Origin: Perkinsus olseni
Lineage: Eukaryota
Assembly: GCA_013115125.1 (NCBI GenBank)
Contig: JABANN010000217.1
Span: 1-52,246 of the forward strand
DNA length: 52,246 nt
Direction: 5' to 3'
Under the pieces are notes generated by a model. That model saw only the letters and a program-made list of their open reading frames with translations, ran no database searches and was not told where the DNA came from. Position numbers and translations under genes: made by a program. Positions 19,870 to 50,630 of this stretch are shown here, piece after piece. Position 1 is the stretch's first letter. Every line of letters starts with the position of its first letter.

Positions 19870-20110
19870 AAATTGCTGAGACTAATACGTCCGACAGGAG
19901 TCGAATGATCCATCCGCAGACTGTTAAACTTTCCTTCGTCGCTCTCCATCGCGTCCTTCATCCAAAGATCCATCCAGATGATGAGGCGATCCTATTCGCC
20001 GCTATCGAGTTACACGGTAGACCGACTCGCGCCACCGACATGCACATTAGCAGGTGAGATAGTTTTCCACTGGTAGCAGGAGCCTCCCCTATAGCCTACA
20101 GCGGCAGGAA

Positions 20111-20376
20111 CTGATCCCTATAGCCTATAGGGATCAGGGCCTGCCGCTGCGCAGAAACCTGCTTGAGAGGTTCCTGAATCTGTGCCCGGGGAGATCGACA
20201 TCGCGGTTCGGCAGCCGAACTTCGGCTTGCTCCGCCTTGAAGCCCACCCGCGGCGGGTGACCCGCCCTCGCAGCGAGTCTCGCTTCATTGCTCTCCTACT
20301 AGGAGAGCAATGAAGCGAGACTCGCCGCTTTTGTAACAAAACTTCCTGCTAGGAGACTCCTAGCGGGAAGTTTTGT
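20111..20376. repeat. Cluster of long palindromes with single-nucleotide spacers
   Basis: 13-bp arms at 20111-20137; perfect 26-bp arms at 20273-20325; 20-bp arms (1 mismatch) at 20336-20376. Confidence 0.92.
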
Positions 20377-27400: not shown

Positions 27401-30400
27401 ACGAACTGAGTCAGAGCAGCCGAGAGCCTGTCTGGTCGTAGCACTCTCAGCAATATCTGAGGAAAAACGTCACGCGCCAGGAAATTATACATTACCACCG
27501 TGTACCAGGCGATGGAATGGCGAGAGGTCTCTGAAGGACCGGGGCAAATCGGCTATCTCCGCTGCAGCCTCAGCATACCTAACAAAAACTCCAGTCTTCA
27601 AATCTTATGAAGACGCTGAATTGCCACTCTCGTAGCTTTCAGGTCGAAAATCATCGCCGCGAAGTGCCGAGCGGACCACAGAGAGCTAGCCTGTAGAATC
27701 AATAGGATCTGTCAGCTCTCACCATCTCTTCCATCCCAGGGAGTCCTGTTCGATGTTCTGTGTCAAGGCCCCTGAACTAGAGCTCTTAAAGGCAGGTATA
27801 GTCTCAACCGTCTTCAGCTGCTGCCATATAACTGAACAGGGCGGGTTGTAAAAAGTCTGTAATCCAATGTGAACTCCACCGACATTCAGTTAACCAGCTC
27901 TTCATCTGGCTCGGCATCGGAGGCGCCGCGGGATCCGGAGGCGCTCGGATTAGTATCTTCAAGTAAGACCTCGCCGAATTTCGTGGCGCGCGACATGTCT
28001 TCTTACATCAACCTCGCTCTGAGTGATGACTTGATTCCTTACTAGTATACGGAGGCACAGCAGACTGGCCACGATGAGCTTGTGCTTATCGAAGAGGCCT
28101 CGCCGTGTGTAGTTAAAGGTGAAAATTGTAATCACTTGCATCAACAGCTCAACCCGATGAAGCAAATCCTTCCCGGTGAGCTCGATGACCTACACAAAAA
28201 CCGGCAAATCGATCAGCCAATCGATTTCGGCTTCTCTCACCTCTTCCTCTTCTTCCGCCACTTCCTCCTCTGCCGCCACGGCATCTGGCTCATCATCGTC
28301 ATCGTCATCGTCATCATCCATTCCTGCCGTCGCAAAGACTGAGCAACGCATAGGGAATCCACGCCGTACCGTCCTCAGCAGCCCCAGCAGGTTCGCCATC
28401 TTCCTTCGCGTCTTCGACCTCCGCCTTAAGACTTGCCGGATCGACCTTCGGTTTCCTCAGAGATACCGAATCGACGGCTCTCGTCACAACTTGGACGAAC
28501 GCGTCCAGTGAATACCTGAAAGATCGACTCTCTGTCGGCTATATCACATCATAATGGTTTTATTGCCATCAAGTGCGCGAATATCCTCCTATCATCATCA
28601 CGAGAATGAACTCACTTGTAGAAGCCATGGACTTTACAGAGGTCCATAAGCAGGAAGAAGAGCAACGCTCCCCGGTTGGCTGATGGGCGGTAGTTCTCCG
28701 AGGTCTCATTAATACGGGCTTCAGTGTCCTGCGCCACAACAACCTTCTCCTTCACTTCATCTGATGTCTTCTTGGCTTCCTCCAATGACAATATCAAATC
28801 CACATCGTCGAGGATATCGCCTAACCAAAGATACCATTCTCGCAGTCTGGTATTAGAATCCTCTCTCCGTTCATCCTCAAAAAAAGAAGCAGAGTATAAA
28901 TTCCCGAGGGATTCAGCACTTTGGTTGGACGCTAGAATATAACTGTCATATATTCCACAATCGATCAACCGTTTCAAAAATGAAGAACATCACACACCTT
29001 CAGAATTCGCTAGTTTTTCCAGCAGCAAAGCCTCCAATTCCGCCAGCTTCACTTTGAACTCATTCTGCTGTACTATTAGGTCCGCCTGAGATCGATGAGA
29101 GTTCGGGCATTTTCGTGGCGCGATGAAGTTTTACTTTCTGCTTGGCAAGGTCTGGTCGTTCCAGTCTCACAACCAGGAAGAGGAGCTGGTCTTCGAGACC
29201 TTGCTCGGTGACAGTGAAGTTAATTATCGTACCTTCATCGACAAAAGCTCCCGCCACGGACGCGGGTTCGATCCCCGCATGCGTCATATTATTGATTCAA
29301 TTCGACGAAAAGGCGACGACCGCATACTCACACTCAGCCTGGATCTCAGGGGGGTAGTGAGGGTTAGACAGCTTCGTCTGCATGAACAGGCGGAAGTTGG
29401 GATTGTAGTTGATCTCCTTATCGCCCAGTTTGATAAGTCGATTCTTTCCCCTGCGAATCGTGTTACGGCCAATGACTGGAGCCAGCACTGCATCAATCGA
29501 CTCTCCCATATTCTCAATCAACACCTGAGAACAAGCCATTCACAAGCAGAGACGCTGATACCTCGTCTGCAAACTGGAAGACTAGTAGAGAAGACCCAGT
29601 CTCGCATTACACCACGGAAGCCTCCAAGATAAGGGAAAAGGGCGGTACGTAATTCTCCCTATATCTAGCTGCTTAACCGCAGCCCGTACCAAAAGTCTTC
29701 CATACCACGACAAAAAAACAGTCACTACAACTCACCGTTTTGCCCTGGTCCAGAGAGGCTTCGAACGTAGCAACCATCTTAGGCCTGCCCATCCGCGTGA
29801 TTTGCAAGTTGTTGCTCGCCTCCTTATTTTTGATCCAGGCAATGCCTTGCAGCTGGGGATCGATAATCAAGCACCATCGCTCCGAGTTCGTCATGATAGC
29901 TCCGTTCTCGCAGGATACCCTATCGGACGGCAAACCCTGTGTCGCCCAGCCAGCCATGTCCGCCTCGGAAGCCAGGATAGAAAGAGGGTCGCATTTGCCG
30001 CTCAATGGGACGTTGTTTTTATTCAGGAACTCCACGAAGGTATTGATGCAGTCCTCTCTGTACTGGCGAGTGAACACCCCCACGTAGCTGACGAAACTAC
30101 AGGCGACCAGCACATCGCCCGGCATAACTTCCAAATCCACGGCAATCTGGCTGACCGTTTGCTCCCAAATGACGCCATTGGCGCCTAGGGCCCCAATCAG
30201 CCTCTGTGCCATCTCCAATTTATTTTGGCACTTCTGTGCTTCGGCCATCACCGCGTCCTTCTCCGCAATGGCCGCATCGAATTCGGCAACTAGTTTGGCC
30301 AACTTCGCCTGCAGCTCGGCTACTTGCGCTTGGACGATTGCAAGACGCTCGTTGGCCCCAGCAAGCATCTCATTGGCCTCTCGCAGTGATTGCTTCTTCG

Positions 30401-33400
30401 GTTCGACTGTTATGACCACGTCATAGTACCTATAGAGGACAACCGCTCGATCGGAGAATCGGAAATGGCTTTGGTATTTCGATAATGGAGATGAACCCGA
30501 TGCATGGCAGGTGCGTTCGAATTCAATAAGATAAAACTACAATAGTTGGACGTCTTGCGGGCCGTTGGACTGCTGTGATTGCGTAGTCACACAATTCACC
30601 TGTCCCCTAAGGCTAGCAGCATCTACGCTTCCGACCGTATTTTTAAAAAACCGGCGTCTATCAGTATCACTCATACGTGGTTTGGGTGGAAACAATTACC
30701 AAGGCTATCAAGGAATGGGTGAGATTTCGGGAGCTACCATCAAGAAGATTACTGGGCCGGCGTCTGTGAGGGTGTACGACGCCCGACGCAGTGCATATCC
30801 GATACTAATGCCGGTCATTCGGTTCACCCGGAAAATCTCACAGCGTCCTTCGAACCTAGAATGCCCATCCCCAGCCCATCTTACATAATAATGTTGATGA
30901 CCCATTCACAGAGACCGGCAGCTGCAGCAGATTTTTTCTTCATACTCTCAACAGTGAAGTCCTCCGCCTCCGTCAGCGGCCTCGCGCATGATATGTTCTG
31001 GCCCGGCACGTTGCCATCGTCAATCTCTCCCTTGAAGGCCTTCAAGCTCTCCAGGAATTTCTCAGGATTTCCCATCATTTTCGTGGCCCCCTTCCAAGAA
31101 GTATCTTTAACCTTGCCTTTCTTGTCAACCTCAATGCTAGGATCAATGCCGGCCATTAGATGCATGCAAGCCTCGCAAACTTTATCGACCCCAGCCGGCG
31201 GTTTCGCGAACGACTTCAACTCCTGGAAGTCCTTCTTATTCAAGACATCGAGAGCCGCCTAAAAACAAATTCTTGCATTCTTGCACATCCTCGCATTTCC
31301 TCAATTATTACCTCAGCCTTCTCCACCAGAGGGATAGCCTTGGCCAGGTCCTCTTCGCAGCTCTTCTGTTGGATCTTCACGTTTTTAGCGATCTCTTCGC
31401 ATGCGGCGGACTCTGCGTTGGCCTTCTCTGCTTCTGCATTGACTTTAGTCTTCTCTCGCCCAACTTCCTCTGCAAAAGCATCTGCTTCCTTCGCCTTCTG
31501 CTCGACTACAACCGCCTTCTCCTTCAAAACCTCCTCGAGACCTGCACAGAGGAGCCGGGTTCAATCCCTGGTGAGCGCATTTCTCCACGAGTGTCCGGAT
31601 AAGATTTGCTTTGACCTGCGACTTGTTCTGCCGTTTCCTTCAACTTGTCGAGTCCGTTAGACAATCTGTACTGCTTGTCCTCCAACGCCAATAGCTTCTT
31701 GCCAAGCATGGACGTATAGAGCTTGATCAACTCCAGGAAGGACTTAGGCGTAGTATACGCGAATCTCCGCTCCACCTCGATGAACTTTTCACTCTGATGG
31801 CCGACGGCTTCAAATGAGAACGGAAGGAAGTCGACCACGCCCGCCCGAAGTGCACCGTCAGCCGGCCCGAGTTGTTCAACCTGAGGATATCCGGTATCAT
31901 GGCTGATCGCGAACGCGAGAAAACTGTGTCACTTTTTTCCAGAAAATTCTTCAAGGTAGCAAATGCCATGAAATTTTCTGAATTTTTCCTCCAATATATG
32001 GCAAGGACCTTGTCCGCGAAAAAATTTTCGGTGATTCCAGTCGTTTTCCGGTAAGATCGCCGATTCCTATGCTCACCTCAGCAAGGAATTTCTCGCCGAC
32101 GGAGCGAAGCGCATCCTTAGGCCAGGGCTGGAACCAGTCAATGACGGTACAGTTGACCAGAGCCGGGAATTTCCTGGCGCGCGACCTCATAGCGTCTCCA
32201 ACGGGAGAGAAGCAGATGCTCATATGCAAATTCTTCCGGATGCGCGAGAGGAAGAAGGACCAAAGATTCTCCGGCGTATCCGGAATTCCTGCGCCTTTGC
32301 ACGCACTCCGGACACCGTTACGGATCACGTCCTTGTCCTCAGACGCGTACCTACCAAGCGGAAAGATATTCTTCGTGGTGCGCACAAAGATACGCTTACA
32401 GATCGGCAATGTCGCCACTAGCGAGAAGATCGTTGATGAAAACCAGAAATTTCTCGTTCGTGATTTGACCGTCGGTGAAAAGGAACATCACTCCCTCGTC
32501 TTTGATGCCCGCCTTTGTATACATGGCTTGCAAGTCCGTCCGCAGATCGTTCATACTATATTTTCCTGACAACGTTGAGGAAATGCAAGAGTGCAAGATA
32601 TCCTAGCAATCTGAAGCCCTACCTGATATAACGATCATAACTGTCGTGCATTGGCCGATGAATGCACTGAGTCTGCTCAGACTCTGACGACCGCTACCAC
32701 CCACGCCCACCAGCAGCGCATGGCCGCTCGGAGCGGAAATGATTCTCGTTATCTTCCCCACGTGCTTCATGGCTTCCTCGAAGAGGACCAAGTCCATGGC
32801 AGCATTACTCTCATTGTAGTCTCTCAACGCCTCAGTGAGCAGTTCTGATAAACGGTCCACGCCCGGAATTCTATCATAGCAAGCCTCGTCAAAGCCTTTG
32901 CTGAAGGGCGCGAAGACCAGCGGCTCGGGATTCTTTTCTTGGAAGTATCTGACGCAGGGTGTCAGCTAAAAGAAAAGTAGTTGAGATAGCGCTAGGTGCA
33001 TTCCCCTGATCCCATCTCCCTCCGATAAGAAGCTACGCCAAAGTGGCGGATGACAAGAAAACAGCAGATGGAAGATTGGATTCCAGACGGCCGAACCCGA
33101 GCGTTGTGTCCTCAATGAATCGGTTTCCGACAATAGTCATCGACTAGTTCTTATAAATGTAGGGGTGATCGTCAACAATCCGCTGCTCACTTGGCAAGGT
33201 TGAATTTCCCAAACATTTTCTTGGACAACTCCGCAGCAAGCCCACGATATTTCCGCAGGTCCCCAGCAGACACTAGACGATCGCCATAGATCCTCTCGCT
33301 CTCGTGCAGCCAGAGCAACACCAGCTTCTCTGGGTCGGTAAACTCGGCCGGCTTAGCCTGCAGGAGGCCACCAAAGACTCCAGCGAGATGCCTGATGTTG

Positions 33401-36400
33401 AATTCGTAGTGGAAGTTGGCCGCAGTCTTCCTGAACGCGGCCGTGCAGCTCCCGTGAAGGGACAGGGCAGCCTTGATAACCGAAGAGATTATTTCATTCA
33501 CTGCTGGTTTGAATTTAAGCCGTTCAAAATGGCCCTTCATGTAGGTTGAATAAATGGTCTGCAGAGCACTCTGTTCAGGGAACGGCACAGCGCAGGTCCA
33601 GAAGTGGCGCTGCAGTCTCGGATTGACCGTGAAGGAACCAGCAGTCGGGTTCATGCAGGCCAAGTATTGAGTATTCCCTATGTCCTTCAACGTCATCTTC
33701 GACCTGTCATAAATGTGCTTGTAGTCCTGACATTGCCGCAGCAAGGCAATGGCGCTCTGGGTGTTGTACGGGTCCAACGCGGGCATGTTGAGGTCATCTA
33801 TAAAGTAGATCATGTGCAACTTGCCAGGCGGAGCGAAGAGCCTTCCCGCCTTCTTTTCGAGCGGAATCTCCATCATCGTTTGTAAGAGCATGCTGTCCGT
33901 GTAGTAGTTCATGTTCATCATGTGGGAACAGAAAACGTCGGGTTCGAGGCTCCGCAAAAGACCGTTGCACATGGCCGTTTTCCCGCACCCAGCGAGGCCG
34001 ATGAGCATAACGGGTTGATGAACCTTCATAAGGGCCTTCATGAAGTAGCTAGTAGCCACAGTCTCCGAGGTCGGCACAGTAACCTGAGAAAAAGCAAGAT
34101 TGAGCAAGAGTTCAAGTTGAGCACGATTCGCAATCGCCATGCCCACATTTTTCACCTTCTAAGATATCAATCTCACCTGGTTCATTGGGACCTCCGAGGA
34201 ATACTCCAAAGCGTCCACTATAATGGACCACTCCTCCATCCGAGCGTCCTGTACGAAGTAGTCAAATACCGTGCCCTTGCTGGGGAACTTGATAGTCTTC
34301 ATCTCCTGTTTCCACCAAGTACTGAACTGCTTGCGATAGTCGATACCATCGACCTCAGCCAAACAGCCGCCCACAGCCCAGACCATGCAGAAACAGAACC
34401 AATACTCAAGAGCGTCGAGCTCGATTTGGGGAGCATCCCTAGAGTCAGTCGAGCCACCTCCCATCAGGGACTCCATCAGGAGACAGAGGGATTGTATCAT
34501 AGAGATGTCTACGAGAGGTACCTGAGATAAGACGAAGTCTCCATTGAACCCAAAAATTTCTTGATGGATGGACGACTTCACCAACGGTGAAGTCGCCTTT
34601 CGTCCATGAGTGTGGTGAATCACCATGGACGCAGCCAGCATAAATTTCTAGTGAGCTACATAGCTATCAGGTAATTTCGTGGCGCAGTGACGGTGATCTC
34701 CCCGCCATAGTTACCTGTATCTTGCAGTGCTTCAACATGTACATAAGCGTATCAGGGCAGTATTTATCAAACAGCTTCTCCATCTGTTCCTTCACCGAAT
34801 CAACAACCTGTAGCTTCTTGATCCACGAGCTTTTGTAACTCCTCCACTGCACTCCCGCGTAGTCAACCATGAAAACCACCCCCGCTCTGGTGACGGTAGC
34901 CGGGGTAGCATAGGCCAGATCCCTGATCTCGAATATCATTTTCATGTGCGCCTTCAGCGGTATACGCTCATTCGAGGGCAACGTCAGCAACCTGTTGTCG
35001 TCCATGACACTATTCATGGATTCAATCCAGTTCGCATCGAGATCGCCGTCCAGGATGATCCATTTAGGATGAGTGTCCTGGATTTGGCCCAGGTATCGCA
35101 TGGTCTTCGACAAGATTCCATCCTTCCATTCACGAGTTGCCATGTTAACATAACCATACAACTCGTTGGTTGAGATACTCTTCGGGTTGAGGTCGATCCA
35201 CGTAGTCTTATCTCCGACCTTGTCCTTCGCCTTTGCTAGAATCCTGCAAAAATGTCACAATTCTTAGCGGAGCGAAGCGCTGCATCTTCTCTGAAATTAC
35301 CTCCACACAGTGGACTTAAAGCTGCCAGGGGGGCCCATCAGGAATATACAGTGTCGAATGACCATCAACTCCACCAGCTGCGTGATCTTGAGCAAAAGAT
35401 ACCCATCCGGGTCAGGGGTGAGCCCGCACTCTTCCATAGCTTGCACTATGATCTGTCACAGAAAAAAGGATACGCCTAGCGAGGGGGCGTACCGAAGCCA
35501 TTACATCTTCGAATTTGTAATCTCTGGCGCGTGGCACGTCGATGCCGGGGAAGAGATCCCCGAGAAGGCCCATGAAAATCTTGAGGTCATCACCGTCAAT
35601 CTTTGCTACGTTAGTATCACGCAACGAACGCATGAGTACCTGAGGAAGGTCGTCGGTTCTATCCCCAGGACCTTAAATATTAAAGCCTTTCACAACCATA
35701 GAGAATCGAATCTTACCGCTTGTTCGGATAGATCAGGTTCTGCCCGTTTGAAGCCACCAGCCACGACCAAGACGGACTTGATAGCCCTCATTCCCCAATC
35801 ATACTGAGGGGCCTTGCTGAGCAAATCCTGGCAGAGGAAGTAGAGCGTCGAGAATTTCTTAGCCAAAACTTTCGCCTCCAAGAAGCCCTCAGCCATGAAC
35901 ATATTTTCCATAATAAGCGCGAAGTCTGGTACCATAACAGTGATGGGTCGGAAGAGCGCCTTCAGGCCCTCGGGGAGTTCACTACGGCCAAGATATCCAG
36001 GATTCATAGTGATGAAGGCTCCACAGGACGGGTCAAGGGAGATCTCATCACCTTGCAGTACAAACACCTTCGTCCTCGCCTTAACCGCATCGCAAACTGC
36101 CTTGAACTGGACTGTACACACAGACAGCACCTCCGGGACCAGACGATTGAACTCATCGAAGCAGCCCCAAGTGCCCGAGCTGGCCAGCCCCTTGAAAATC
36201 GCTCCCATGGTTCGATAGTCCATCTCGGGACTAGCGTTAAAGACAAAGCAAGCCTTGGCAACAGCGTTGGCGAGATCCTTGGTCGTCTCAGTCTTGCCCG
36301 TACCAGCAGGCCCAGCGGGAGCGCACCCCATGTTCAAGTGAAGGGCCTGCGTTGCAGTGACGTAAATTCTATCGGTAAGGGGAGTCACCACAAGCCTTGG

Positions 36401-39400
36401 ACCATTCCCGAGATATTCATAGCCGTACCAAAAGGCCGCATCAGCGATCTTCTGTCGGCAATCATCAGCTTCCACGTCCCAGTAGGCTTTCAACTGGGCC
36501 TGCCACTGGAACGCGTCGGGCGTGGTGACACCTTCCTGGGCGAGCTTCTCGGTGATATCTCGGTTATGAGCATCCAGGGTAATCATACACATGACCTTCA
36601 TGCGCTGTGGCTTGTCCAGGGCAGTCTGGGTGAGTCTGATGAGATCTAGAAGAAGATCCGACACGCGCTGCGAAGATTTTTGCACAGCATCTTTGTCCCC
36701 TTCGTTGTAGGCATCGAAGGCTTGCTCGATCATGCGCACCCACATGATCATGTTGACCATAAGGGCACACTGGGCAGCTGTGACTTCCTTCACCCATTCA
36801 CCACGGCCAGAATCTCCAGCCTGACAAAAATGCCCTAGGGGGGATTCGAACCCGGGATCTCAACTAACCTCTTCGCAGTCCAACAGGGCCTTCTTGGCAT
36901 AGTACTTCAACGCTGTGCGGAAGGCCTCTACGCATTTTTCCATATATATTTCCACCTTTCCCTCCAGCGGAGTAGGCTCGGGGAAGGGCACATACCTGAG
37001 TCCGAAAGGTCGCCGGTTCTATCCCTGCACCCTGCACTTACTCAACACCGACACAGGACTCCATACCAACAGCATCGGGCCTCTGATCCTTCCCATTGGG
37101 ATATTCCAACTCGTACGTCTGCACCGCCTGGAAGACCTTCGACAGATGGGGCATGACCTTGGCTGGGGTGTTGCCGTTGGAGAGAATATCGAGGAGATCA
37201 CTCGTGGAGACGAAGTAAAATCGTGGGAAGGCTCGCCGCTTTCCGTCCATGAAGTCATTCAGTGCCTGACAATAGCCAATGATTAGACTGCGATGCATCA
37301 AGTTCAACAACAAGACGTAGCGAAATCGAAGCTCGGCCACCTCAAGTCGGCCAAGCTTCGCGCGCCGCGAAATTCCAAGTAGGCACATACACAGGTGTCC
37401 GGTATGAAAACACAGAGCGATTTGACGTAGTGAAGACGTAGCTCGGCCAATTCAGACCCTCCCAGCGTCGCGCGCCACGAAATTCACAACCACTGCTGAG
37501 ATTTCGATTAAAACAACTCACCTTCTCGCAAAGGTTGAGCTGACTTTGAGCTGTCTCCAGTCTTCCAAAGATGCCATCTTCATTACAGAAGTCTTTACAA
37601 AGCCTCAGCTGCTCTCCCTTCTTTAATATCTCCTTCACGTCCATGTCAATACCAACAAACCGTTCACTCTCATCTGGCAGCTCTTTCTTAACCTCCGCGC
37701 TATGGATGAAAAGATTCTCTAGGAAGCTCCAACTGCGTTGAACCTCGCTGAGTAAAGTCGACACCTCAGCGACATTGGCCAGACTTTTCTGCCAGAATGT
37801 GACCTCGGTCTCGAAGGTGGACAGGAATCTTGAAGCAAACATATTCTGAACTTGGACCTGGTGTTCTTCGAGCATCTCGAAGTTCTCGTCGGAGATCTTC
37901 ATAAGCTGGATATCAGTGTCCTTGTGCTGGACGAAATCATACTCAACGCCAGCCCAAGTCTCAGTGAGCTTAGCGAGCGTCTTCTCCATCTTAGCCTCTT
38001 GCTTAGCCTGGTCGCCTATCTCCTCAACTGCCTCTGAGAACCTGATCAGACACACATTCCGTCACGAGGCCCTCTAGCTTCCTGCATGCCGGTGATTCCA
38101 TGACCTCCAACGTCTAGGCCTCACTCAGTCTCCTCGTGTGTTCCCTAGAGGGCCGTGCCGGGAATTTCACATGCTGGCCCGCATACGCACGTACCGTATG
38201 AGAATCCAGAACAACACGATGGCTGATCGCCCATAAAAATTTTAGGAAATACGCGGAAATTGAGATCAGCATTCTCAAAACTTATACTCTAAAGATAAAA
38301 GATACTGAAGAACGCGAGTGGAGCTAAAGTGGCGATACGCAAAGATTCACAGAAGATATGTAGAAGATATTGATGCAATATTTCAAGTTGAGATACGCAT
38401 GCGGGCCGAACCAACTTCTCGAGTAGCTACGGACTCTACGGTTGATTTCATACTGTCATGATATTTGCCGCTGTGTATCAGAGGCATCCCAGCGCAGGTC
38501 ACCGTGTGCGCGTCCGAGAAGTTCATACCACTCCTCTCACAAATCACACTCACTTGTGTAGCTCCAAATTCCACATGTCTCTCAGCAATATATTGGGAGA
38601 CACTGATATGTTCTTCCCGCAGAGGTCCATGAGAGCCGACCAATGCCTTCCACGCATGGCGGGATCCCGAAGCTCAGCCACCAGAGGGCAGAACGTCGTC
38701 CACTTCCTCATCACGTCCTGACAAAGACACGTCGCACGAAGATGCGTATCGCGCACAGCGAAGAATTCAAGTCGGGTGATGTGAGATTTCTGAGAAGCCG
38801 AGAAAAGAACCTCACCTGCATGCCCAAGAAGGCATCCCTCTTCTTGTCAACCTTAATCTCTTTCAGCTGCTTGAACATCAACTTGATCTCTTCCTCCATC
38901 TACGTGTAGAAAAAGCAAGTCGTAGCAAGATTGCAAGATGCATCCTCACCTGGTCGGGTACTAGTTCCCCCCAGCGCAGGACGAGGAACACCTCTGTGTT
39001 CTGGATCCGAAGGTCCTCAAACTCCCACAGGCTCAACATAAGCGCGACATCTTCCCGCATGGCTGCCATCAGTTTCCTAGAATTTTTCAGCTCCTCAGGG
39101 TATTCGAAATTTTCCGCGATATGTCCCAAATTTTCCATCTCCTTGTCGAACTCGTCCAAATCCGCAGTAACAGCCGCAATTCGCTCCATTGCAAGCTCGA
39201 GGCCCGACTTGTAGAAGTAGTAAGCTTCCTTCCTAAGGCCGGCCTGATACTCTTTGAGGCCGTTCTCGAACTCAGCGATCTTGGCTTTATAAATATCGGA
39301 CTCCTTCTGGACCATCGGCGCTATCTCCTTTTCCTTTTGTTTGCACGCTTGCTTTACAGTAGCTAGGGAGTCCCATGTCTTCTTCAACTGTTTCAATGCC

Positions 39401-42400
39401 TTCTCGTTAGGAAGACCCTCGCGCTGGATAGCCTACAAGATCGAGCGAATATCTTTGCATACTATGGGATAATTCAGAACTAAAGATACTCCACGATTTC
39501 AGCAGTAACTCCTGACCGCCCATCACAGAAAGCAGCAAATCCCTCCCGATTTATTCGTCCGTGATCTAAACGACAATTGCGCGCGAAGACATGACGGTTC
39601 AAATAGTGCAGCGTAGCCTATTGACACTCGAGGTAGGCGGCATTTACCATAGAATGACAATTTCAGTGAGGAAGTAAAACCTCCAACTTACCCCCAAGCT
39701 CTCCAGAATCTCGTCCTGTTTGAGTATCAGATTAGCTTCTTCGTCGTACATCGTCTTGATATAGTTCTTCACCTTAATCAACGCTCTCACATCACCAGCA
39801 TTCAGCTTAGCACTGATGCCAGCATCAGTCGACTTGAGGAACTCCTCCAACTCCTTCACGCTCTTCGTTATGAATCCTGTCATCAGCGGGCCAGCGTACT
39901 CGTTGGCCCTCGGTTTCGCCGTCTCGCAGCAGGTCGCGGTGAATGGGGATCCTCTAATCGGCCTCTCTTTATTGTTCTCATCGACCAGGTTAACCTTTAT
40001 CGTGATATCACCAGCGTCCGCTTTGGCAGTGTAGGTCACTTCATAACGACCGTTATCGAAATCGTGGAAGCATGTGGCCTCGTCGTAGAACTCCTCGCCG
40101 CCTTGCTTGACCGAAATGACGAACTTGTCAGCCCCGGAGGTTCGATTCTCCCCTAGGTTATTTCTCCCTTGTATTATAAATCTATTCACTTTGCCAGCCT
40201 CTCCTTCATTCAGCAAGCCAGGGCCGTAACATAGAGACTTATCAGCAATGGTGTTGAGGAAGTAATCGAAGTGAGTCAAAGTAGTCGTAAAATCTTTCAC
40301 CTGAAGAATTCACTCTTCCGGATTGATCCCAGGCGACACGCGATGGACTGAGCATTCAGACTCTCTCATAAGACTGAGAATTTTGGAAAATATCGCCTCC
40401 ATGTTCGAGAAGCCTCACAGGACGAGCTCACGAACTTCTCTATCCGTAACGTCCCATCTCTCCCGGCCCACTTACCCCTACTGCGAATCGGACGTCGCAC
40501 CTTTTGGGACCTATCGTCTGCACAACAGCCGGAGTGAGGCACTCAATGGTGTTATCATCTATGACTGTGCCTACAGATCGTCACGCAAAAATTCTTCCTC
40601 GACGTGGAGCTGGGGATACGATCCGTGTCGCGCCCCACGAAATTCCCACCAGTCATCTACTATGCTGGTTACTGCAAGGAAGGCCTCAAAAGACAGGGCC
40701 ATCTATTATGCGAAAAAAGTCGACATACCGGAACTGTACAGTTGTGCTGCTTCTCTAATGTCGCTCATTGGCAAGGAGGGGTGACAGAGACTTCTACGCT
40801 ATCCGCGAGTCTCGAAGTGACCCATACGAGCCGTGCACGCATGCACACGAAGTGATCAGCGCATGTGTATAGATTGGAACTTACCAACTGTGTCGGCGAA
40901 GTCCTTAGCCGTGGAGAACCGTACCGTCACTGTCCCCTGAGTACTGGTAGCACCAACACCGCGGATACGGATGAGCTGATTGCCGGTAACCGGACCTGAG
41001 AAGTCGCTGGTTCGATCCCCGGGCTCTCCATTTCTCATTACCGAGAGCTGGTTCCACCTTAATGATCGCGTAAGGCGGCCCTACAATAGAGCTGACGTTG
41101 ATCTGCCAGACGTCATCGAGCCATTTATTGGACCATCCGCCGAAGACTATCAACCTCGACTCATCCGCCTCGTAAACGACCGAGGCGTGCTCCCTGACAA
41201 AAGATACGCTTTTCCGCAGCGGTAAGAATCTACCCACCTCGCTGAAGGCATGAACGTATCCGGCATCTGGCCGAGCGAGTTGGTTTGAAAGTCCTCTTGC
41301 ATTTCACGGAGAGCGGTACCAGGCGGAGCCTCCAAGCTCGGCTCGGACCACCGAAATTTGTCCGCCAAGTCAAGGACACCGATGCGCTGATCGAACGCCC
41401 CAAGGGATCGGCCGCCGCCCTCATTGTCACACGCACCACCGAAGACAAAGACCCTCCAGGAAGGGATAGCGTGGACGAGCTGCAAACTGAAGTTCCATCG
41501 CGGGGAGCTCCAGCCGAGGTCGAGATCGGTCCAGTCTTTGTTCTCAACGTCGAGCATGAAAAGATCGTTAAACTGCTGTTCGTTGTTCCAACCGCCAAAG
41601 ATGTACAAATTACCATCCTTCGCAAAGGCCCCGTGACCAGAGCGAGGAGCAGGGGGATTTCCCTGGCACTGGAGTTCGATCCACCTATCGTTGTCCAGGT
41701 TGAGGACATGCACGTCATTGAAAGGCCGTCTGCTGTAGCCCTGTCCACCATGACCACCAAAGAGAACTATACTGTTCTCCACTAGAGTAGCCGTATGATT
41801 TGCTCTCGGGGCTGGCACGTTCGGCGGCTGCTTCTTCGACTCCTCGTCTTGATTCATGAAGTTGCTGACCAGAGTCACAAGATCCTCATGAAAGGCGTCG
41901 TTCTCGTCCGTCAGCACTCCGTTAGAAGAGTTCTGTCCACCACCGGCAGCCTTCTTCGATTGACCACCACTCGGCATGATCGATTTCTTCGGAGTAATTT
42001 TGTTCTGCAAAATGGACTTCCACGTTTTCCGCCTTCCTCCACCCATGATGCTCTTGTTGCCACCAGCCACAACCTTCGCCGCGGTCCCCGCCAAGTCCGC
42101 GAAGCCGACGATTTTGGACGCCCGACCAGCGAACATCGATGGTCTGCCGAGCCTAGAGCGACCACCACCCGCAGCGTTGTGAACCACCTCTTCAATGAGA
42201 CCAGTGAGCCTGCGGACACCGGCGCTCTTCTTGTCGGTCTGAGAAGCCTTGAAGACGAGCTTCTTCCACTCCATACAGGAAGCGTCGAGTATCCAACCGT
42301 CGTTGAGACACTGGTAAGGCGTGGCACTGTGAATGCCACCGAAGAAAAATATCTCATCGTCAGTCACGCAGGTGGCCGTGTGAAGCGTCCGGCCAGGTGG

Positions 42401-42637
42401 AGAGCTGCTGCTCGGGTCCAACTCGACCATTTGCCACTCGTACTGATACTGAGGATGCAATTTGAGAATGTACAAGTCCGAATTCGGAGCGGGGTTGCCG
42501 AGGTCGTTCCGACGGCCGTCCATGCCGCCGTAGCAGATGAACCCGTGGGGAGTGGCGGTGATCGTGTGACCTGACCGCGGTGACACGCTGGTGCCGCCCG
42601 CGTTCTTCAAGCGCACCCAAGCGTAGGGTTGGGGCAT
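24492..42637 (-). CDS. Axonemal outer-arm dynein heavy chain with N-terminal kelch repeats, IPT and filamin-like domains (Chlamydomonas alpha/ODA11 type), multi-exon
   Basis: Kelch repeats ([30 protein letters not shown] motifs); filamin-like [12 protein letters not shown]1 GPAGTGKT and [12 protein letters not shown]2 [23 protein letters not shown]3 [11 protein letters not shown]4 GVGGSGRQS; stalk [12 protein letters not shown]5 [11 protein letters not shown]6 [12 protein letters not shown]-terminus [13 protein letters not shown]-stop. ATG at 42637. Confidence 0.95.
29262..29286 (+). other. Orphan tRNA 3'-end-like / B-box element in dynein intron 29233-29331 (antisense to host)
   Basis: GCGGG-TTCGATC-CCCGC-ATGCGTC-A-TATT; perfect T-arm; no 5' half. 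Confidence 0.75.
31555..31582 (+). other. Orphan tRNA 3'-end-like / B-box element in dynein intron 31542-31615 (antisense)
   Basis: CCGGG-TTCAATC-CCTGG-TGAGCGC-A-TTT. Confidence 0.75.
36826..36855 (-). other. Orphan tRNA 3'-end-like / B-box element in 48-nt dynein intron 36821-36868 (sense)
   Basis: CCGGG-TTCGAAT-CCCCC-CTAGGGC-A-TTTTT. Confidence 0.7.
41006..41033 (+). other. Orphan tRNA 3'-end-like / B-box element in 46-nt dynein intron 40996-41041 (antisense)
   Basis: GCTGG-TTCGATC-CCCGG-GCTCTCC-A-TTT. Confidence 0.7.
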
Positions 42638-43558
42638 TGAGAAATGTTAAACTGATGAGGACGCTGATGACGTCCACGAGGTGACCATCAACAGATCAAG
42701 TTTAGTTCAGGGAAACCGCTGCCAGGCCTCGAGCAGGCCTGACGGAAATGCGAGTAGATCTATCGGAGTCATGTTACATGACGGGAAGGGAAGGGCCTTC
42801 ACGACCTCCTTTGCTACGCACGATGCCCGGCTGCTATATCTACCCGCTTCAAAACACGAGGAGAACGCCGATTTCGCGCGGAGCGGTAGCAGAGCATCAG
42901 AACAATGGGCGAGCGGTAATCCATTACGCGCGGCTGTAAACTGCGCGCGCCATTATGATCGATTTGTGTTCAACCTTCGATCCATTGATTGGTGGAATTT
43001 TTAGGTGCTCAGCGGAGGTTCTACAGACCATGCAGTGAGCCTGAGCAGCTCCTGATAGATTTTTCAGGAGGACATCTCTTCGCTGACAGCATTTCGGGTA
43101 GTCGATCGCTGACAGACACACCGCACTCGGCCGTCCAATCCGCGTGCTCAATAGACTGCCTCTCCTGAGTTTCAACATCCCTCCGAGGATCGCCTCATGC
43201 ATGTTGAATTAAATCCTGCGAGCTCTCCTAGAGTCAACCCATTGAACAACCCCGGCAATTTGTCATAGGCGACAGCATTTGCAGTCTGGAAGGGAACGTG
43301 CAAAAGTGAGGCCGTCATGCCACGTAGCACGGAAAGGGTCGAGCAGCTTTGATCTAGGTCGCTGTTGCAACTCGGGCAATCTATTAACCTCGCGGACCAA
43401 TCCCCGACACTAGCTGTTCTGGGGGGGTATTTGCCTATCGGGTTTCGGAGGTATCACTCGCTGATTCGTCATAGGTGGCGACTTGAGTGCCGTCATCCGT
43501 GTTTCAATCGCCGAAAACTGTAGTGCTACAGCAGTTCTACGTTAGAATTCAGAGAGAC

Positions 43559-46500
43559 ATGTCTCCTAGTCCTGCCCCGCAGACTTCGACGACTACTACT
43601 ACCAACATCGCCAGGACCATACCCCGCGCTGGACCATGGTCCGGCTCGGGAAGGGGAGCCTGGGGCTCGGATACCATATCGGCCCAGCAGCTTATGGCAG
43701 TAGGCGCTGATGTTAGCGGAGAAAATCTGTAATAGGGCTGGACGGGCACGGGCGGATCAACCGGGCCAATCTCTTGGTCACCGTGAACTTGCTGGAGCGC
43801 ACTTTGAGCGTGGAAAAAGGAATTCCTATTTTGTTCTCTTATACGACGGTTTTTCTGAAAGGATTTTGAAAAATTCTTTTTCTCTTGAGAAAGCTCTTTT
43901 TGCTGGTTTCGTTTGGGAAGTTTGCTGCGAGCATGCTCGTATGCTGTTCGTTTTGCTTTCTGTCGTCAATGACAGCACTGCAGTGACACTACCGTCGAGA
44001 ATTTTTCGTGCTGACTCATCCGTGCCTACTTTCAGGGCAAAATTAATGGCATTTGAGAAGAAGAAGGACGATAAGAGCGCAGCGGTGATGCTGGCTGCTC
44101 TCTCGGACCCGGACCTAGCCGAGCTCAAGATGCGCGCTGTTAACTCCTTGGAGTCAGTCGTGAAGGATACTTCGCAGGTCGGACGGAGACAAGACGCTGG
44201 TTGAGTTGACTGCCGCGTATCCTAGGTTCACGCACGCATGATGAAGCTTGAGGGCAGCATCAAGGCCTTGGCGGCCGAGGCCAAGTCCCAGCAGAAGGAG
44301 CATGAGCAACCTGGGCGGACTGCCTCGAGGGGAGCTAGTGCTCATCCTAGCACCAAGAGGTGAGATTCACACTGGAGTAATGGTAGTAGTGAATGGACTA
44401 GGCTCATAGGGGAACTTTCACAGGAGAGACCCGAACCCGAACTTTTCTCCAACCCCAGTGTCCCGGTGTCACTTCACGGAAAGCCGATTTGTTCTCAAGA
44501 AAAGTGGCCTCATCCTCGAGGAATGACGCTATGGGATCAGTAACCGTACTGATGCGTCCGGTCTCCGTTTCACGTATACGAGACTTGTTCTTCTAAGGTT
44601 CGGAATAAATGAACCGCGGTTATATTTCTGTCTTTTCTGTGCGCTTTTTCGTCCGCTGCAATTGAGTACGGTGTACTTTTTTCCCTTCAGTCCACTTGGA
44701 TACCAATTCGCGCGCTTGTGTCGCACTGGTAGGTCTAGCAATGAATTCCCTGGCTCCATTCGAGATCAAAGTTTTCGCCCAACCCCGTGTGCTTCAACTA
44801 GCCCAGTGACGGTAGCTGTCGACAAATTCGACTACCATGCAGTCGCAAGCTCTACCGGGCTTATCCCGCTCTTGCCGCATTTTGTTGTTTTTCCATCAGA
44901 AGTGCCAGTCGCTCCATCGGCCCCAGCATTGGGAGCAAGCTCAAGGACCTTCAGTTGGAATTCTCCAAGCTGGGCAACAAGAAAGGTAATGATGCTACTC
45001 TCGGCAATTCTTGGCAATCTTGCTGTTTCCCAACGCTCAGCTGACTGTATCGCTCACACTCGAGCTCTCGAAATCGCGAAGAAGACGGTGGAGGACGAGG
45101 TGAGATCTTCGTAGCTTCGCTCCGCTAAGGAGATGTTTTTTCAGCTGGACTGCCGGGATACCTGTACAGCATTGAAGCTGCCACGTACACGATATGAGGA
45201 GATGAGACTTGCCATCCCGGCGGAGAAGGTTCAGCGATCTCGAGGTGAGGTTCGATGTAAATTAGGATATTTCAAGCGGAGCGATGCAACAGTTGAGATT
45301 ACAACGCGAGAAGAATGGTAGCGACTAGATTGTAGTTTCTCTTTACTCTACCGTCCCTTAGTGACCTCTCGCTGGAATCTTTCCGGTGCGGGTGCGTGTC
45401 GTCGTGATCAACTGCTTCATCACGAACCGATTGACAATGCGTGCAAGTTGCGCAAAATGTTCTATTCAATAGTGAAAGACTAAAGCAAATTTGCACAAGA
45501 CTGTGAATTTCTGGATTCACGCTGGTCGACGATATTTCTCCCTCAGGCCGGAACGGCGCGAATTTCCGACGCTTAGCGAACCAGTTTGGGGTGTTGGTCG
45601 ACGAGGTCGAGCAGCAAGCGCAGTACTCCCAGAGTGATGCCACTGGGGGAAGTGGGGATGAGGACGGGCCACTCACCGTGAAGATAAGGGGAGAGCAGAA
45701 GCGCGTGTCTGAGTGCTATGCTGAGCTCAAGCATGAAGTTTGTGAAGAGGTACTAGGTTTAGGGATCGGAAGGTTGTGCGATCGAATCCTGGAGAGGGTA
45801 CTTTTCTAACTTGCCGCCTTTTGCAGTGTCTGGGCGGTGTAGACTACACATAGTGAAGAGGTTCGCTCGATGGTCAGCGCATCGTGCTGATACTCCTCAA
45901 TACTCCTGTCATCCGTGCTTGATCATGGCGCCAGTCGGACGCAATCAACGCGCTTTTCTACGTGCGGGTCTATCCGACCATTTCTGGACCCTCGTTCCAT
46001 TTTGATCGTGGAGTTATCACGGTGGTTGATGTCTTGATTCAATCAACCCGCTCGGGATTCCCGACAGAAATGTGACAGGGGATGTCCATTGAGTTGATTG
46101 TGAAAATTAGGATCGACTAAGGAATCGCATTTTACGTGTGAAGATCATTTTTAGCTGAGGAGGGCTGAGTCAGGCTGCATCCCCAGCCGTAAAGCTTTTC
46201 ATACCGAAAGGACTCCTTCAGTCTGCTAGACGATGCGGCAGTGGACTATCAGATACGATACTACCGCGAGCTGGACAACTCCCAGCTGCAGGCGATGGCC
46301 TTCTTCGCCAAGTACATCGAGAAGGAGATGGAGGAGCGGTATAGCTGGATTAGCTGCCGGCTGGTTGTTATGTTCAAAGAGAAGCAGGTAGTATTGGGTG
46401 CTTCGCTCCGCTAGAGTTACCAAATTCTCGTAGGTATTGATGAAGCTGGCGGACATGGGATCTGAGGAGAAGCAACAGCAGCAGCAGTCGAGCGGGAGAT

Positions 46501-49500
46501 CTGACCCGAAGCTCCGAAACGTATTCGATAAAGTGAAGAGGGCTATCGCCGATCGGTTGAACGGTAATGATGGGAAAAGCTAGAGGTGTCAGAAAATATG
46601 GGAAGTATTGGAAGACTGGTTGCATTGGGTGCACCCGTGAAACCGTTTAACGCATGAAACGCGATGTTGGTGACATCACTCGCGCGTTGACGCACACAAC
46701 ACTGGTGCAATTCCATGAACTTGATGAGGACTTTCGTCGAACTTAGACCAGTCTTGCGGAGGCTAATGATATCTTTTAGAAGCCCTGCGCGAAGTGTGAA
46801 ATATCGAGCTCTGTTTACCCGTGCAGACGTGTAGAGCGCTGGCCCGATCGTGGTCTCGATCTCGTGAATTCACCTCTCGAGTGAGCGACCGTACAACGAG
46901 ATCTCGACCAAGCTGGCGATGCTCCATCTTGAATCGTCTTGTGACCATGGAAAGCGTCGAAGTGCTTGTGTGCCAGGTTACTCTACTGTTGCGCTTACTG
47001 CCAAGAACCAAGCTAGCGTCATTATCGGCAAGGGTGGTCAGAATATAGACAAGCTCAGGGTAGTATGATATAATTTCGTGGCGCGTGACGAATCTGAGGG
47101 GTGCCTTCAGGCGGAGACTGGCTGTTTCCTATATATTGAGAATCCTTCGGGAGTGTCGACGCGGCAGTCTTCTCCGAGCGTTGAGGGTGACGGCGATGAT
47201 GATGCCGTTAACGAAGCTCAGTATGGGTCCTTGAGGATTATCGGCAAGAAGAGAGAGTAATACTGGTCGGGGGCATGAGGTTGTGAAATTAACTGATTCG
47301 ACGGCTCTGTGGACTTTCCTCGATATTGGTTTGAACGAATTAGCAGACGAAGTTGGGTCGTGAAAGGGGGGCTTAATGAGGATTCAGTTGTTAGACTCAT
47401 TGTGGCGAGTTGGCCGTATGCACTTCGAGAATATACCGAGTGCCGGGATCGATCCTCCGCCCCTCGATGTCTCGTCTTCCGCTCTCAGTCTCAACGCTGC
47501 CAAGGAGACCGTCATGAAGTTCGTCGAGTCCCAGAAGAGGTCTACTCTTGTGTAAGTCACAGCGGATGCCGTTTGCCTTTTTATTCTACTGCCCCGCGCT
47601 GAGCGCCTTCTCGAGCGTATAAGGTTCTAGGTGGCGCATTGACGAGGAGACTGATGCAGAGGATCTGATCGAGTGCATCTGGGACAGGAGGACAGTTAAG
47701 CGTGATCCGGCTCTCGGAAATGTCGGCCGGGCGCCCCAAGTGAGCATCAGAAGCAACAGAATTCCCCTCATCACCATTCGCATTTTTCCTCAGTACGGCC
47801 TGACTGGTTATCGCCGTCGACTGAGAGATGCTGGTTTTATGCTGAGGGTTGAGCTGGATGATGGCAGATTCGGCAGCGGCCGTCGTCAGGCTATGCATAC
47901 CGGAGATCCGTCCAAGGATGCTGCAGCGAGCGGTCATGTCGAGGTGGTATCTTTCGACCTTGAGAAAAGCAAGCATGGAAATTGTATGACTTTCTCTCAG
48001 TTGATTTTTGAGTGCTATCCTGGCGAGTTTGAGGGAGCTAAGAAGGTCATGTATGATATGATGGAAGAATGGCGGGAGCTCAACTTCAGGTAGTAACTGG
48101 CTCCACCGCCCGCTCCATCTTGCACATCCGCTGCTGCTGATCGTCTATGGGGATCTCTGCGATTGACGTGAAAAAGTGCGACCACTCCGTCCTCCTCGAA
48201 AATTTTTGCTCATGGCGAATAGCGGAGCGAAGCTCGACCAATATATCTTTGAAACATGTATCGAGCTACACTTAGATTATCATCCTGAAACGCGTAGCCC
48301 CTTTAGGAAAATGCCTTCCAGAGTTGGACAGGGGATGGTATGGGACGCCCTCTAGTCAGTTGTGCTATACCTAATTTTTCGTAACTCCTGATGACATGTC
48401 GTAGGTGCACGATATCCCTTCGTTCGGACCTTTCGAAGCAGCTGTTGAATCTCGGAAGAGGCGGACAGGGGCTGCAGAAATTCCGCACTCTCGCCAGGGA
48501 GAAGGGCGTAGAGATCAGTATCAGGTAATAACGGGGTGAGGATCAGCTGAGTTTGAGATGAAGGATGGTATCGGGTTCGAATCTCCGCAGTAAAGTCCCC
48601 TTTACATAATAAAGGGGACTTTATCCTGCTTGCGTGATGCCCGGCGGCTTCAGGCGAGGTAACCCCGGACACGCGCCGAGCCTGGACTCCAACGATGATG
48701 CTGACGAGGAGGAGACTGGATCCTGCCCGACTATGGTAGGTCTCTGCACCGGCCCTGTCAGTTTCCTTATGCTTCCACAAGGTGCTATCTGGAGTAGAGG
48801 CTAATGTGCTCGAGGTTGAACAGAAATGGATTGACCGGTTGGAGAAGTTCAAGCGAGAGAACAAGACTTCCGAGGTTTGTGCATCCGAGATGATTTCGGT
48901 TTGGAGTGGTACGTATTTTTAATTAGTTGACGCTCTCGATTGTGCATTTGTTCGCCTTCGGGCTAACAGACTTGACGCCGCCATCACCGTCGACTTCGGA
49001 AGATACCCCGACGAAGGAGAATGGGACCAATGCTGCTGAGAAGTAATGAACCAGGGCACAGTGATAGGTTGTGGGATCCTTTACCCTGACGGTGCCGTCT
49101 TCGGCTTCAATAGCTTCCACCCGGGTTCAATTCCCTGTAGCGGGATTTAGTAAAACCTCGTGAAATTTACTCTCGCGATTAGATACGAGACACTGGTGGT
49201 CAACTGCGGTCCGAACGCCGTTGAAGATGCTACTAGGACCCTGTTCAAGCACGTTAGGTCCAGTCCTGGACCAGAGGATGGTAAGAAATGCTTTCGCTGG
49301 GGGTCGAACCTGCGGCCTTTCCACGATTATTCATTCTTAGGCGAGAACGGTCCGCTATCAAATACTGGCAGTGTGGATTTCTCTAAGGATGCTTGCGGAA
49401 CTGTGACCTTGCATTTGCGGGGTACCGAGCAGTTCCTTGGCAGAATGAAGGTGATAAACTCGATTGGGGAACCAACCCGGCGTGTAACGAATCATCAACC

Positions 49501-50630
49501 ATCGGAGTCACTATGAAGTTGCCGCGGATTTTCGCTGGAATTCTTCCATCAGGCGTCCGCGATATCCGAGACAATAGAGAACGGAACGTAAAAATTCTTA
49601 ATTTCTCGCCAATCGAAATTTAGCCGCCTATTCTTCGCCATCCGAAAGATCTTGCAAAAGTTGAAAATCTCATTTTCTCGGCCGAAATCATACGCCTCAA
49701 TGCAGAATGAACTCGCGAGATTTCTTTAATTTTAATTTTGGAAAAATTCCGAGATTTTCTTAAAACTTATACGCCTAGCCGAGGCCCGTCCAACTCGAAA
49801 GAATGAATCAATGCTGCGTCTTCCTCAGGACGCTGTGTCTCGCTTGCTCGAGTCATTCAGTGCTACCAACCTCGTGGTTGGTGTCCCTGCAACCTCACGT
49901 AAGCCAACGGTGGCAAGATTTCTCCGGTATCCGCTGGTCCCTTCAGTAGCGACGCTGAATGAGGAGGTGCTTAGCCATTTGAGGAGCAGATATCATGTGG
50001 AAGCTAGGATTATTAAGAACCCCTACGAGGTGATTGAGGGGAGCTACGTCGCAGCGTCTGAAGGGGTCAGTTGGCACTGCTCTCAGGGCGATGATTTCGG
50101 TCATTACTTGCTGGTCACAGCTGAGTCGAAGGAGGCCGAGATGGGCGGCTGCCGAGAAGAAGTTACTCGTATCATCAACAAGGAGTGAGCTCACGCTGAT
50201 AGTAGTCTGCTACTGTATTTCTTTCGCCCTAGGCCGCCTCAAGCAACGGCTGGTCCTGAGCTCGGTGCAGGCCCACGGGCTAGTAAGGTTTCGATTGATG
50301 CAGTATTGCCCCACTCTTGCCCCTCAGTGTCCGCGTCTACTACACCGCTGCCGTCGGGTGATGGCGAGGTGGCCACTGTCGTCACTCCGGAGGCTAGTCG
50401 ACCAGATGCTGCTGCCTCTACCTCGGCCGCGGCTGCTGCTGAGCAGATGCGACGATCTTCGCAGATAATGCAGATGTAGGACTGTTCGGAGGAGTTCGGT
50501 GCCTTAGTTGCCGAGATTCTTGTGGCTCTTCAGGGCACCTCAAATGACGCAGCAACAGCAGTACGCTAACGCGGCTACGGCCAATCAGGCCAACGCGGCG
50601 TATGAAGCGAGCGTGGCGATGTGGCAACAA

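Follow-up and report, generated by a model that had tools for sequence, protein, structure and literature searches.

How do pieces of tRNA genes come to reside in the introns of protein-coding genes, and by what route might they have arrived there? The question is raised by a stretch of 52,246 nucleotides (nt) of the Perkinsus olseni genome (GenBank assembly GCA_013115125.1, contig JABANN010000217.1, positions 1 to 52,246 of the forward strand; hereafter the window), where short sequences with the layout of a transfer RNA (tRNA) 3′ end, here called modules, recur within the introns of two unrelated genes, one encoding a dynein heavy chain and the other a KH-like protein. The explanation towards which we lean, with some reservation, is that the modules are 5′-truncated copies of RNA polymerase III (Pol III) tRNA transcripts that were inserted into genes and survive there as introns.

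The motif GGTTCRANYCC-N9-SA-TWT has six exact matches in the window, at 29265+, 31558+, 36828-36852 (-), 41009+, 49124+ and 49286-49310 (-), compared with none in 100 dinucleotide-preserving shuffles. These are the six sites listed in the initial annotation, whose coordinates lay 3 nt further out because they included the T stem. When up to two mismatches are allowed, 11 matches are obtained in the window against 0.89 expected, namely the six exact ones, two real tRNAs, the intronic sites 37015+ and 47431-47455 (-), and a site at 40139; copies with just one mismatch are absent from the window, and at up to three mismatches the search enters the range of noise (24 matches versus 11.35 expected). 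The match at 40139..40163 (+) lies in a coding exon (a filamin repeat conserved in homologues and crossed by 23 high-scoring segment pairs) and was rejected as a module; it is read as a chance match, since one such match is expected. Repeat finding, together with a covariance model built from the copies, added 35655+ and 48574+. The six modules described initially are thus all exact, but they are not the full set: four degenerate intronic copies (35655+, 37015+, 47455- and 48574+) bring the total to ten. All module counts refer to this one 52-kb window. The host genes, the ten modules and the two intact tRNA genes of the window are as follows.

25318..42634, minus strand: host gene 1, dynein heavy chain, with N-terminal Kelch, IPT/TIG and filamin repeats; about 39 modelled introns, 6 with modules.
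46470..50190, plus strand: host gene 2, KH-like, highly covered, with KH-like GXXG motifs; 15 contig-supported introns between 45100 and 49828, 4 with modules.
29257..29289, plus strand: module m29265, variable loop, intact T arm GCGGG/CCCGC, ATGCGTC, A73, TAT; antisense in dynein intron 29248-29331 (84 nt).
31550..31582, plus strand: module m31558, T arm with 5/5 pairs, TGAGCGC, A, TTT; antisense in dynein intron 31542-31615 (74 nt).
35647..35676, plus strand: module m35655, degenerate, T loop TTCTATC; antisense in dynein intron 35640-35716 (77 nt).
36828..36860, minus strand: module m36852r, CTAGGGC, A, TTTTT; sense in dynein intron 36821-36868 (48 nt).
36999..37036, plus strand: module m37015, variable arm AGTCCGAAAGG, T loop TTCTATC, ACCCTGC, A; antisense in dynein intron 36996-37041 (46 nt).
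41001..41033, plus strand: module m41009, GCTCTCC, A, TTT; antisense in dynein intron 40996-41041 (46 nt).
47431..47463, minus strand: module m47455r, degenerate, GGATCGATCC, ACTCGGT, A, TAT; antisense in gene-2 intron 47257-47488 (232 nt).
48566..48595, plus strand: module m48574, weak, with the B box intact and the tail not; sense in gene-2 intron 48525-48653 (129 nt).
49116..49148, plus strand: module m49124, TAGCGGG, A, TTT; sense in gene-2 intron 49043-49182 (140 nt).
49286..49318, minus strand: module m49310r, CGAAAGC, A, TTT; antisense in gene-2 intron 49281-49340 (60 nt).
13794..13873, plus strand: intact tRNA-Leu-AAG, identified by ARAGORN and Rfam; the reference for the origin of m37015.
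2705..2778, plus strand: intact tRNA-His, identified by ARAGORN and Rfam; sense within the 163-nt GT..AG segment 2651-2813.

The modules descend from tRNAs. If positions 54-60 are assigned to the T loop, the T stem is followed by seven acceptor-like bases, an A at position 73 and then T-rich bases; the base before this A is C in five of the six exact copies, as had been pointed out. T-loop/B-box consensus, acceptor strand and discriminator base therefore stand at tRNA spacing in all six exact copies, and the consensus upstream of the T stem, AAGGTC, resembles the variable loop of a tRNA. Homology to one particular tRNA at positions not common to all tRNAs is displayed by m37015, which is identical to the tRNA-Leu-AAG of the window at 22/27 bases and, over the class-II variable-arm segment AGTCCGAAAGG, at 11/11; this segment is not a universal feature of tRNAs. 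Such homology is seen in part for m35655, which matches m37015 at 19/20 bases over the variable loop and T arm and has the same odd T loop, TTCTATC; the two agree on the 5′ side of position 63 and differ on its 3′ side. The acceptor-like 7-mers given in the initial annotation are correct and all differ. Among the ten copies, these strands are 26% alike in pairwise comparison (45 pairs), which is the random level, and the flanks are unrelated, so that the copies do not form a single recent family and instead resemble parts of many isoacceptors. Their early description as tRNA 3′ ends that do not belong to a single family of short interspersed nuclear elements (SINEs) agrees with both the acceptor strands and the variable arm of m37015.

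Only the 3′ half is present. Neither ARAGORN nor Rfam (at the gathering threshold and with E up to 10) found a whole tRNA at the modules, the His and Leu genes being the only ones detected in the window, and A-box-like motifs are not enriched there (5 found versus 7.61 expected, two of the five being the real tRNAs); the lack of a D arm and anticodon arm, remarked upon at the outset, is in line with this. The full cloverleaf of a functional tRNA gene was not recovered at any module, and introns of 46-48 nt are too short to hold one.

All ten copies lie inside modelled introns, although introns account for a fraction of only 0.327 of the two genes (p = 1.4e-5), and about one in five of the modelled introns across both genes (10/54) contains a module. 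The evidence for these introns differs between the two hosts. For gene 2, contigs from two runs (X7, taken as RNA by guess only, and X10, which is unlabelled) join across 15 GT..AG segments among the joints listed (15 of 56), and the four segments that bear modules (47257-47488, 48525-48653, 49043-49182 and 49281-49340) are skipped with GT..AG ends; such joints were not found in the DNA-like runs X8 and X9, and joints in the dynein gene were not found among the 15 of 56 listed. A 27-residue exon of gene 2 matches KH_1/KH_2 below the Pfam cut-off. The dynein introns come from our own dynamic-programming model, in which GT..AG candidates were chosen with the help of tblastn coverage by 163 homologues; several of its 39 introns have weak splice sites and are possibly wrong. 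A dynein exon matched a partial Perkinsus olseni protein best, with 95% identity. The dynein module sites are crossed by collinear alignments of homologous proteins and of 80 metagenomic loci; the residues flanking the module introns there form conserved motifs, such as AVGMNACVGKEYVPFPEP in a relative, and intron 40996-41041 interrupts a conserved IPT/TIG motif. The bounds of intron 31542-31615 are supported by the Perkinsus olseni protein P0001 and by P0029, which do not have the nine residues that a shorter intron would retain. Note that the 80 metagenomic loci show at most 71% identity and are cDNA-like or intron-free at the module sites, and are uninformative about intron gain or loss; the motif has 0 matches in these 80 loci, and ARAGORN, applied to 54 of them, found 0 tRNAs. 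The intronic position of the six exact copies holds, with 49124 and 49310 in contig-skipped segments and the other four in modelled dynein introns, and so does the shortness of some hosts, as these six introns measure 84, 74, 48, 46, 140 and 60 nt. Diverged DNA contigs (about 3% different) run gap-free across 36522-37148 (X8, X9) and 49176-49564 (X9), which indicates that at least three module introns predate that divergence of about 3%.

We also observed that the N terminus of the dynein, with its Kelch, IPT/TIG and filamin parts, is common to many stramenopile and alveolate matches. The transcript-like contig over gene 2 begins about 2.9 kb upstream (43561-46450, +) and crosses another frame that ends near 45800; this may reflect two genes joined in a single contig or, alternatively, a long spliced leader region. 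The tRNA-His segment 2651-2813 lies on the plus strand between two IPT/TIG-domain exons of a third gene, its bounds being placed from the sequence and the continuity of the TIG motif and not from RNA.

In 6/10 copies 5-9 nt separate the variable loop from the boundary of the intron, which places that boundary at tRNA position 35-39, and for m37015 the next base outward of the intron already belongs to conserved coding sequence. At the other end, a splice site follows A73 after 5-11 nt in four copies; in m49310r, the reverse complement of A73+TTT directly adjoins the 5′ splice site, GTAAG. The tail of the exact copies is TTT exactly, followed by a base other than T, in 4/6. The T-rich tail compared earlier with a Pol III terminator does exist, but only 1/6 of these tails contains at least four Ts, and as terminators they are short. 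Seven of the ten copies are antisense and three sense to their host (for the six exact ones four and two, as originally counted).

Three introns consist of the fragment and splice sites only: 40996-41041 (46 nt), 36996-37041 (46 nt) and 36821-36868 (48 nt), with 5-8 nt left on either side of the fragment. The first reads GTAATGAG, then AAAT, then the reverse-complemented acceptor, T arm and variable loop, then CTCAG. The second has the same build; the bases immediately 5′ of the arm, when reverse-complemented, form its 3′ splice site CTCAG, and A73 borders directly on its 5′ splice site GTAAG. The third is the sense version, composed of GTTAGTTG (8 nt), the module, TTTTT and GTCAG. Insert and intron are thus co-extensive in 3/10 copies, in introns modelled from homology. 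Published Perkinsus introns range from 39 bp up and are mostly shorter than 100 bp (stated in part of PMC3101222), so that the fragment is about the size of a minimal intron. The initial interpretation is supported in part by these observations, in that the modules are tRNA 3′ ends without a 5′ half, are confined to introns (10/10) and in three introns of 46-48 nt are accompanied by nothing else; of the two readings it offered, a dense system of intronic TFIIIC anchors made from eroded tRNA genes and introns gained from tRNA 3′ fragments, the second appears to fit best.

How might such introns have formed? The nascent RNA made by Pol III ends in UUU-OH, and position 37/38 is both a common stop of tRNA reverse transcription and the cut site that gives rise to tRNA halves; moreover, Perkinsus is an alveolate known for heavy recycling of complementary DNA. 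Each module would be the 3′ half of a nuclear tRNA gene, with many different genes represented, and would run from position ~35-39 through A73 into the first terminator Ts; A73 followed by exactly TTT fits the UUU-OH end of a transcript better than a copied DNA terminator with its flank. The template would be a nascent Pol III transcript ending in UUU, whose reverse transcription would stop near position 37/38. We infer that the genome repeatedly receives copies of tRNA transcription units, of which full-length ones would stay tRNA genes (the tRNA-His in its 163-nt intron is a possible example) and 5′-truncated ones would be dead fragments. In genes, such copies would be tolerated only inside an intron or if they are spliceable with few flanking bases; tolerance only when spliced out would account for the confinement to introns, for both orientations and, in at least three cases, for whole introns of 46-48 nt. 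As only about 10 nt of the minimal introns are not tRNA-derived, they are not an old intron plus an insertion; the insertion would have either created the intron or replaced the interior of one. The setting agrees with this reading, in that P. marinus has hundreds of near-identical tRNA genes, including 349 tRNA-Leu-CTT and 116 tRNA-Gly-GGA (from a portion of PMC3706591).

A bolder form of this proposal is possible but doubtful. In it, new spliceosomal introns would be made from tRNA 3′ halves (from about position 38 to UUU, about 39 nt) that are copied into coding DNA and spliced at once either way, a transposon-free, introner-like process which would supply a sizeable share of the short introns and leave behind B boxes that load TFIIIC. 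One might speculate that the near-palindromic T loop acts as a branch site whichever way the module faces; no clear branch-site consensus emerged when 44 introns lacking a module were searched by k-mers.

Several observations weigh against the insertion of truncated transcript copies. Direct repeats flanking the modules, as target-site duplications would appear, do not exceed a random-pair null, the longest shared words being 3-6 nt and the null mode 4-5. The 3′ end of tRNA-Leu-AAG, the type most amplified in P. marinus, is matched by 0/10 copies; the comparison with specific tRNAs covered the two tRNA genes of the window. The pair m37015/m35655 suggests that some copies, at least, arose from one another or have a non-canonical origin. 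The dynein introns, which host six of the ten modules, are predicted by a homology-guided model and not from RNA. Finally, the combination of an intact motif, an empty one-mismatch class and broken stems is not predicted by insertion followed by uniform neutral decay.

This last point deserves attention, as it bears on what the fragments might do. Over the ten copies, 36/50 T-stem cells are paired, 72.0% compared with 69.9% when partners are shuffled, which upholds the earlier remark that T-stem pairing is partly lost; each of the three outer pairs is broken in 4-5/10 copies. In the exact copies all 16 motif positions are intact, yet outer T-stem pairs are broken in 4/6 copies (8/18 pairs). 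Ascertainment by the motif accounts for part of this contrast, but not for the empty one-mismatch class. Two options remain. Either the copies were born with unmatched stems, as T-loop chimeras or from non-canonical source genes, a case that the m37015/m35655 pair looks like, or the B box, A73 and T run may be under constraint, as for putative TFIIIC sites. On the latter supposition the fragments would be kept by TFIIIC binding, with or without Pol III, by analogy with the ETC (extra TFIIIC) sites of budding yeast and the COC (chromosome-organizing clamp) sites of fission yeast, and short Pol III transcripts may terminate at the T run. Such retention is compatible with any origin; it would explain why six copies have a flawless B box, A73 and T tail while so many of their outer stem pairs are broken, and both the density of ten copies in about 21 kb of two genes and the indifference to orientation are as for a site acting at the DNA level. 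Nevertheless, we consider it unlikely, since the contrast arises partly because copies were found by their motif, the four further copies each have a defect in the B box or the tail, the two related copies m37015 and m35655 have T at position 57 within a non-consensus loop, and tails with four or more Ts are the exception; the B-box consensus GGTTCGANNCC is present in 7/10 copies, with three deviating. Selection on the B box would also leave unexplained the stop at A73+TTT and the filled minimal introns.

The origin of the fragments could be different from the one we favour. Whole intronic tRNA genes might have decayed in place, losing their 5′ half by deletion under pressure for short introns, and the intact tRNA-His in a 163-nt intron of the same window would be a starting point for this, with shrinkage made plausible by the prevalence of Perkinsus introns below 100 bp (according to part of PMC3101222). 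However, the ten remnants are without exception 3′ halves, consistent with the lack of A-box enrichment; as the same half persists in both orientations (7 antisense, 3 sense), retention of the host branch point or 3′ region offers no explanation, and trimming three introns to 5-8 nt on both sides would have taken two precise deletions each. We therefore regard decay in place as quite unlikely. Likewise unlikely is a single mobile intron family (an introner, a miniature inverted-repeat transposable element or a SINE-like element) with a tRNA-like core that has diverged outside its constrained core. For such a family speak m37015 and m35655, which lie 1.3 kb apart in one gene and share not only the bases described above but also the 3′ splice region, the recurrence of other short intron cores, GAATTTCGTGGCGCGCGAC (8 copies versus 0.01 expected) and AGCTTCGCTCCGCTAAG, and two introns in different genes that are alike over 35 nt in host orientation. 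But the random-level likeness of the acceptor strands, the lack of a shared body, terminal inverted repeats or target-site duplications, and the match of one copy to a specific class-II tRNA arm, unlike a generic core, make this improbable. It remains to consider filler at the DNA level, in which the repair of double-strand breaks within genes took up copied stretches of tRNA genes at its junctions, with no RNA step. While target-site duplications were not seen and in the 46-48-nt introns the fragment seems to replace the interior rather than add to it, filler should have random end points, and the modules stop consistently at A73 plus about three Ts on the 3′ side and near position 35-39 on the 5′ side; this we judge very improbable. 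Insertion of 5′-truncated tRNA transcript copies, rather than decay in place, thus remains our preference, with an RNA intermediate and with creation or replacement of an intron as its proposed components.

Some other recurrent sequences should be mentioned in their own right. Copies of the core GAATTTCGTGGCGCGCGAC, counted at up to three mismatches, lie at 6052, 27469 (-), 27976, 32167, 37357 (-), 37467 (-), 40627 (-) and 47071; their flanks are unrelated, and they are mostly intronic and occur in both orientations, the copy at 32167 being coding (dynein SRARKFP). This core also appears to resemble an E2F site, and TGGCGCGCGAC would complement a tRNA 3′ end with CCA, like a putative primer-binding site. 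The introns 27457-27505 (-, 49 nt) and 47060-47110 (+, 51 nt) of different genes are 83% alike over the 35 nt, in the sense of their hosts, and the likeness extends to the bases that follow the 5′ splice site; it looks as if sequence had been copied from intron to intron, which from these alignments seems to occur in the window. The third core, AGCTTCGCTCCGCTAAG (16-17 nt), was found in three introns of two genes (35244-35300, 45100-45144 and 48090-48404), once reverse-complemented. At 20099-20376 there are three adjacent near-perfect palindromes with arms of 25, 29 and 20 nt, 1-nt spacers and 92-97% complementarity.

The covariance model of the copies gave three extra matches at E <=0.02 (663-710, 24085-24132 and 45762-45809). 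The last (E 0.018) sits in an exon and is probably due to chance. The first (E 3.8e-5) is like a tRNA 3′ half (AGGTC, TCGAG TTCAATT CTCGG, CACAGCC and a T-rich tail); it lies outside both host genes, 3′ of a 16-nt hairpin, and a whole tRNA was not found there. The match at 24085-24132 (E 0.002) is T-arm-like and may be a broken tRNA gene, with an A-box-like TAGCTCAGTTGGT 30-45 nt upstream that contains TAGCTC, the target duplication of three P. marinus Dada families. At lower significance (E about 1), 1353-1400 ends 10 nt upstream of a CTCAG|GT site and may be a further copy, in the TIG-domain gene.

The origin of new spliceosomal introns is a long-standing question, and the documented large-scale source is transposon-like introners. 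Here the raw material would be different: the back halves of tRNA genes, from many isoacceptors, present in about one fifth of the introns of two genes and making up the entire intron in three. This suggests that, in the Perkinsus genome, introns are repeatedly seeded or invaded by pieces of tRNA. If this were true genome-wide, it would provide a series of intron insertions or gains that are tagged by sequence and can be dated, as well as a natural set of orphan B boxes inside genes transcribed by RNA polymerase II. A published description of tRNA 3′ halves in introns, for Perkinsus or any other organism, was not found in the full-text literature, supplements being outside the scope of the search.

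Comparison with known systems helps to place the modules. ETC and COC sites likewise present an isolated B-box consensus without a tRNA gene; they are defined by measured TFIIIC occupancy and are mostly intergenic. Unlike them, the modules carry an acceptor strand, A73 and a T run and are intronic. Nested intronic tRNA genes, of which the tRNA-His at 2705-2778 is an example, differ from the modules, which have no 5′ half and show eroded T stems. tRNA-derived SINEs and tRNA retropseudogenes are similarly dispersed, dead copies of Pol III tRNA transcripts, and the mammalian 'tailless retropseudogenes' are tRNA retropseudogenes too, truncation being expected when reverse transcription starts at the 3′ end. 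However, SINEs have A and B boxes in a 5′ head, a body and a tail, whereas the modules are a bare 3′ half running to the terminator, without body or A box, with no shared flanks and with flanking repeats at the null level. In the same genus, P. marinus harbours Dada DNA transposons of 4.7-11 kb that insert into tRNA genes, three families producing the target-site duplication TAGCTC in the A box, and the tRNA genes, which are very numerous, are described as focal points for mobile DNA, whose activity leaves fragments of tRNA genes behind (in part of PMC3706591); no Dada element adjoins the modules, which sit in protein-coding genes. Introners, for their part, form near-identical families, often with inverted repeats and target duplications, whereas the modules share only universal tRNA features, neither repeat type was seen, and in the window only m37015 and m35655 look related. 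What the modules have in common with the introners of Micromonas, Aureococcus, dinoflagellates and Amoebophrya (the last from part of PMC7789003) and with the introner-like elements of fungi is an insert that can be co-extensive with the intron, in unrelated genes and in either orientation.

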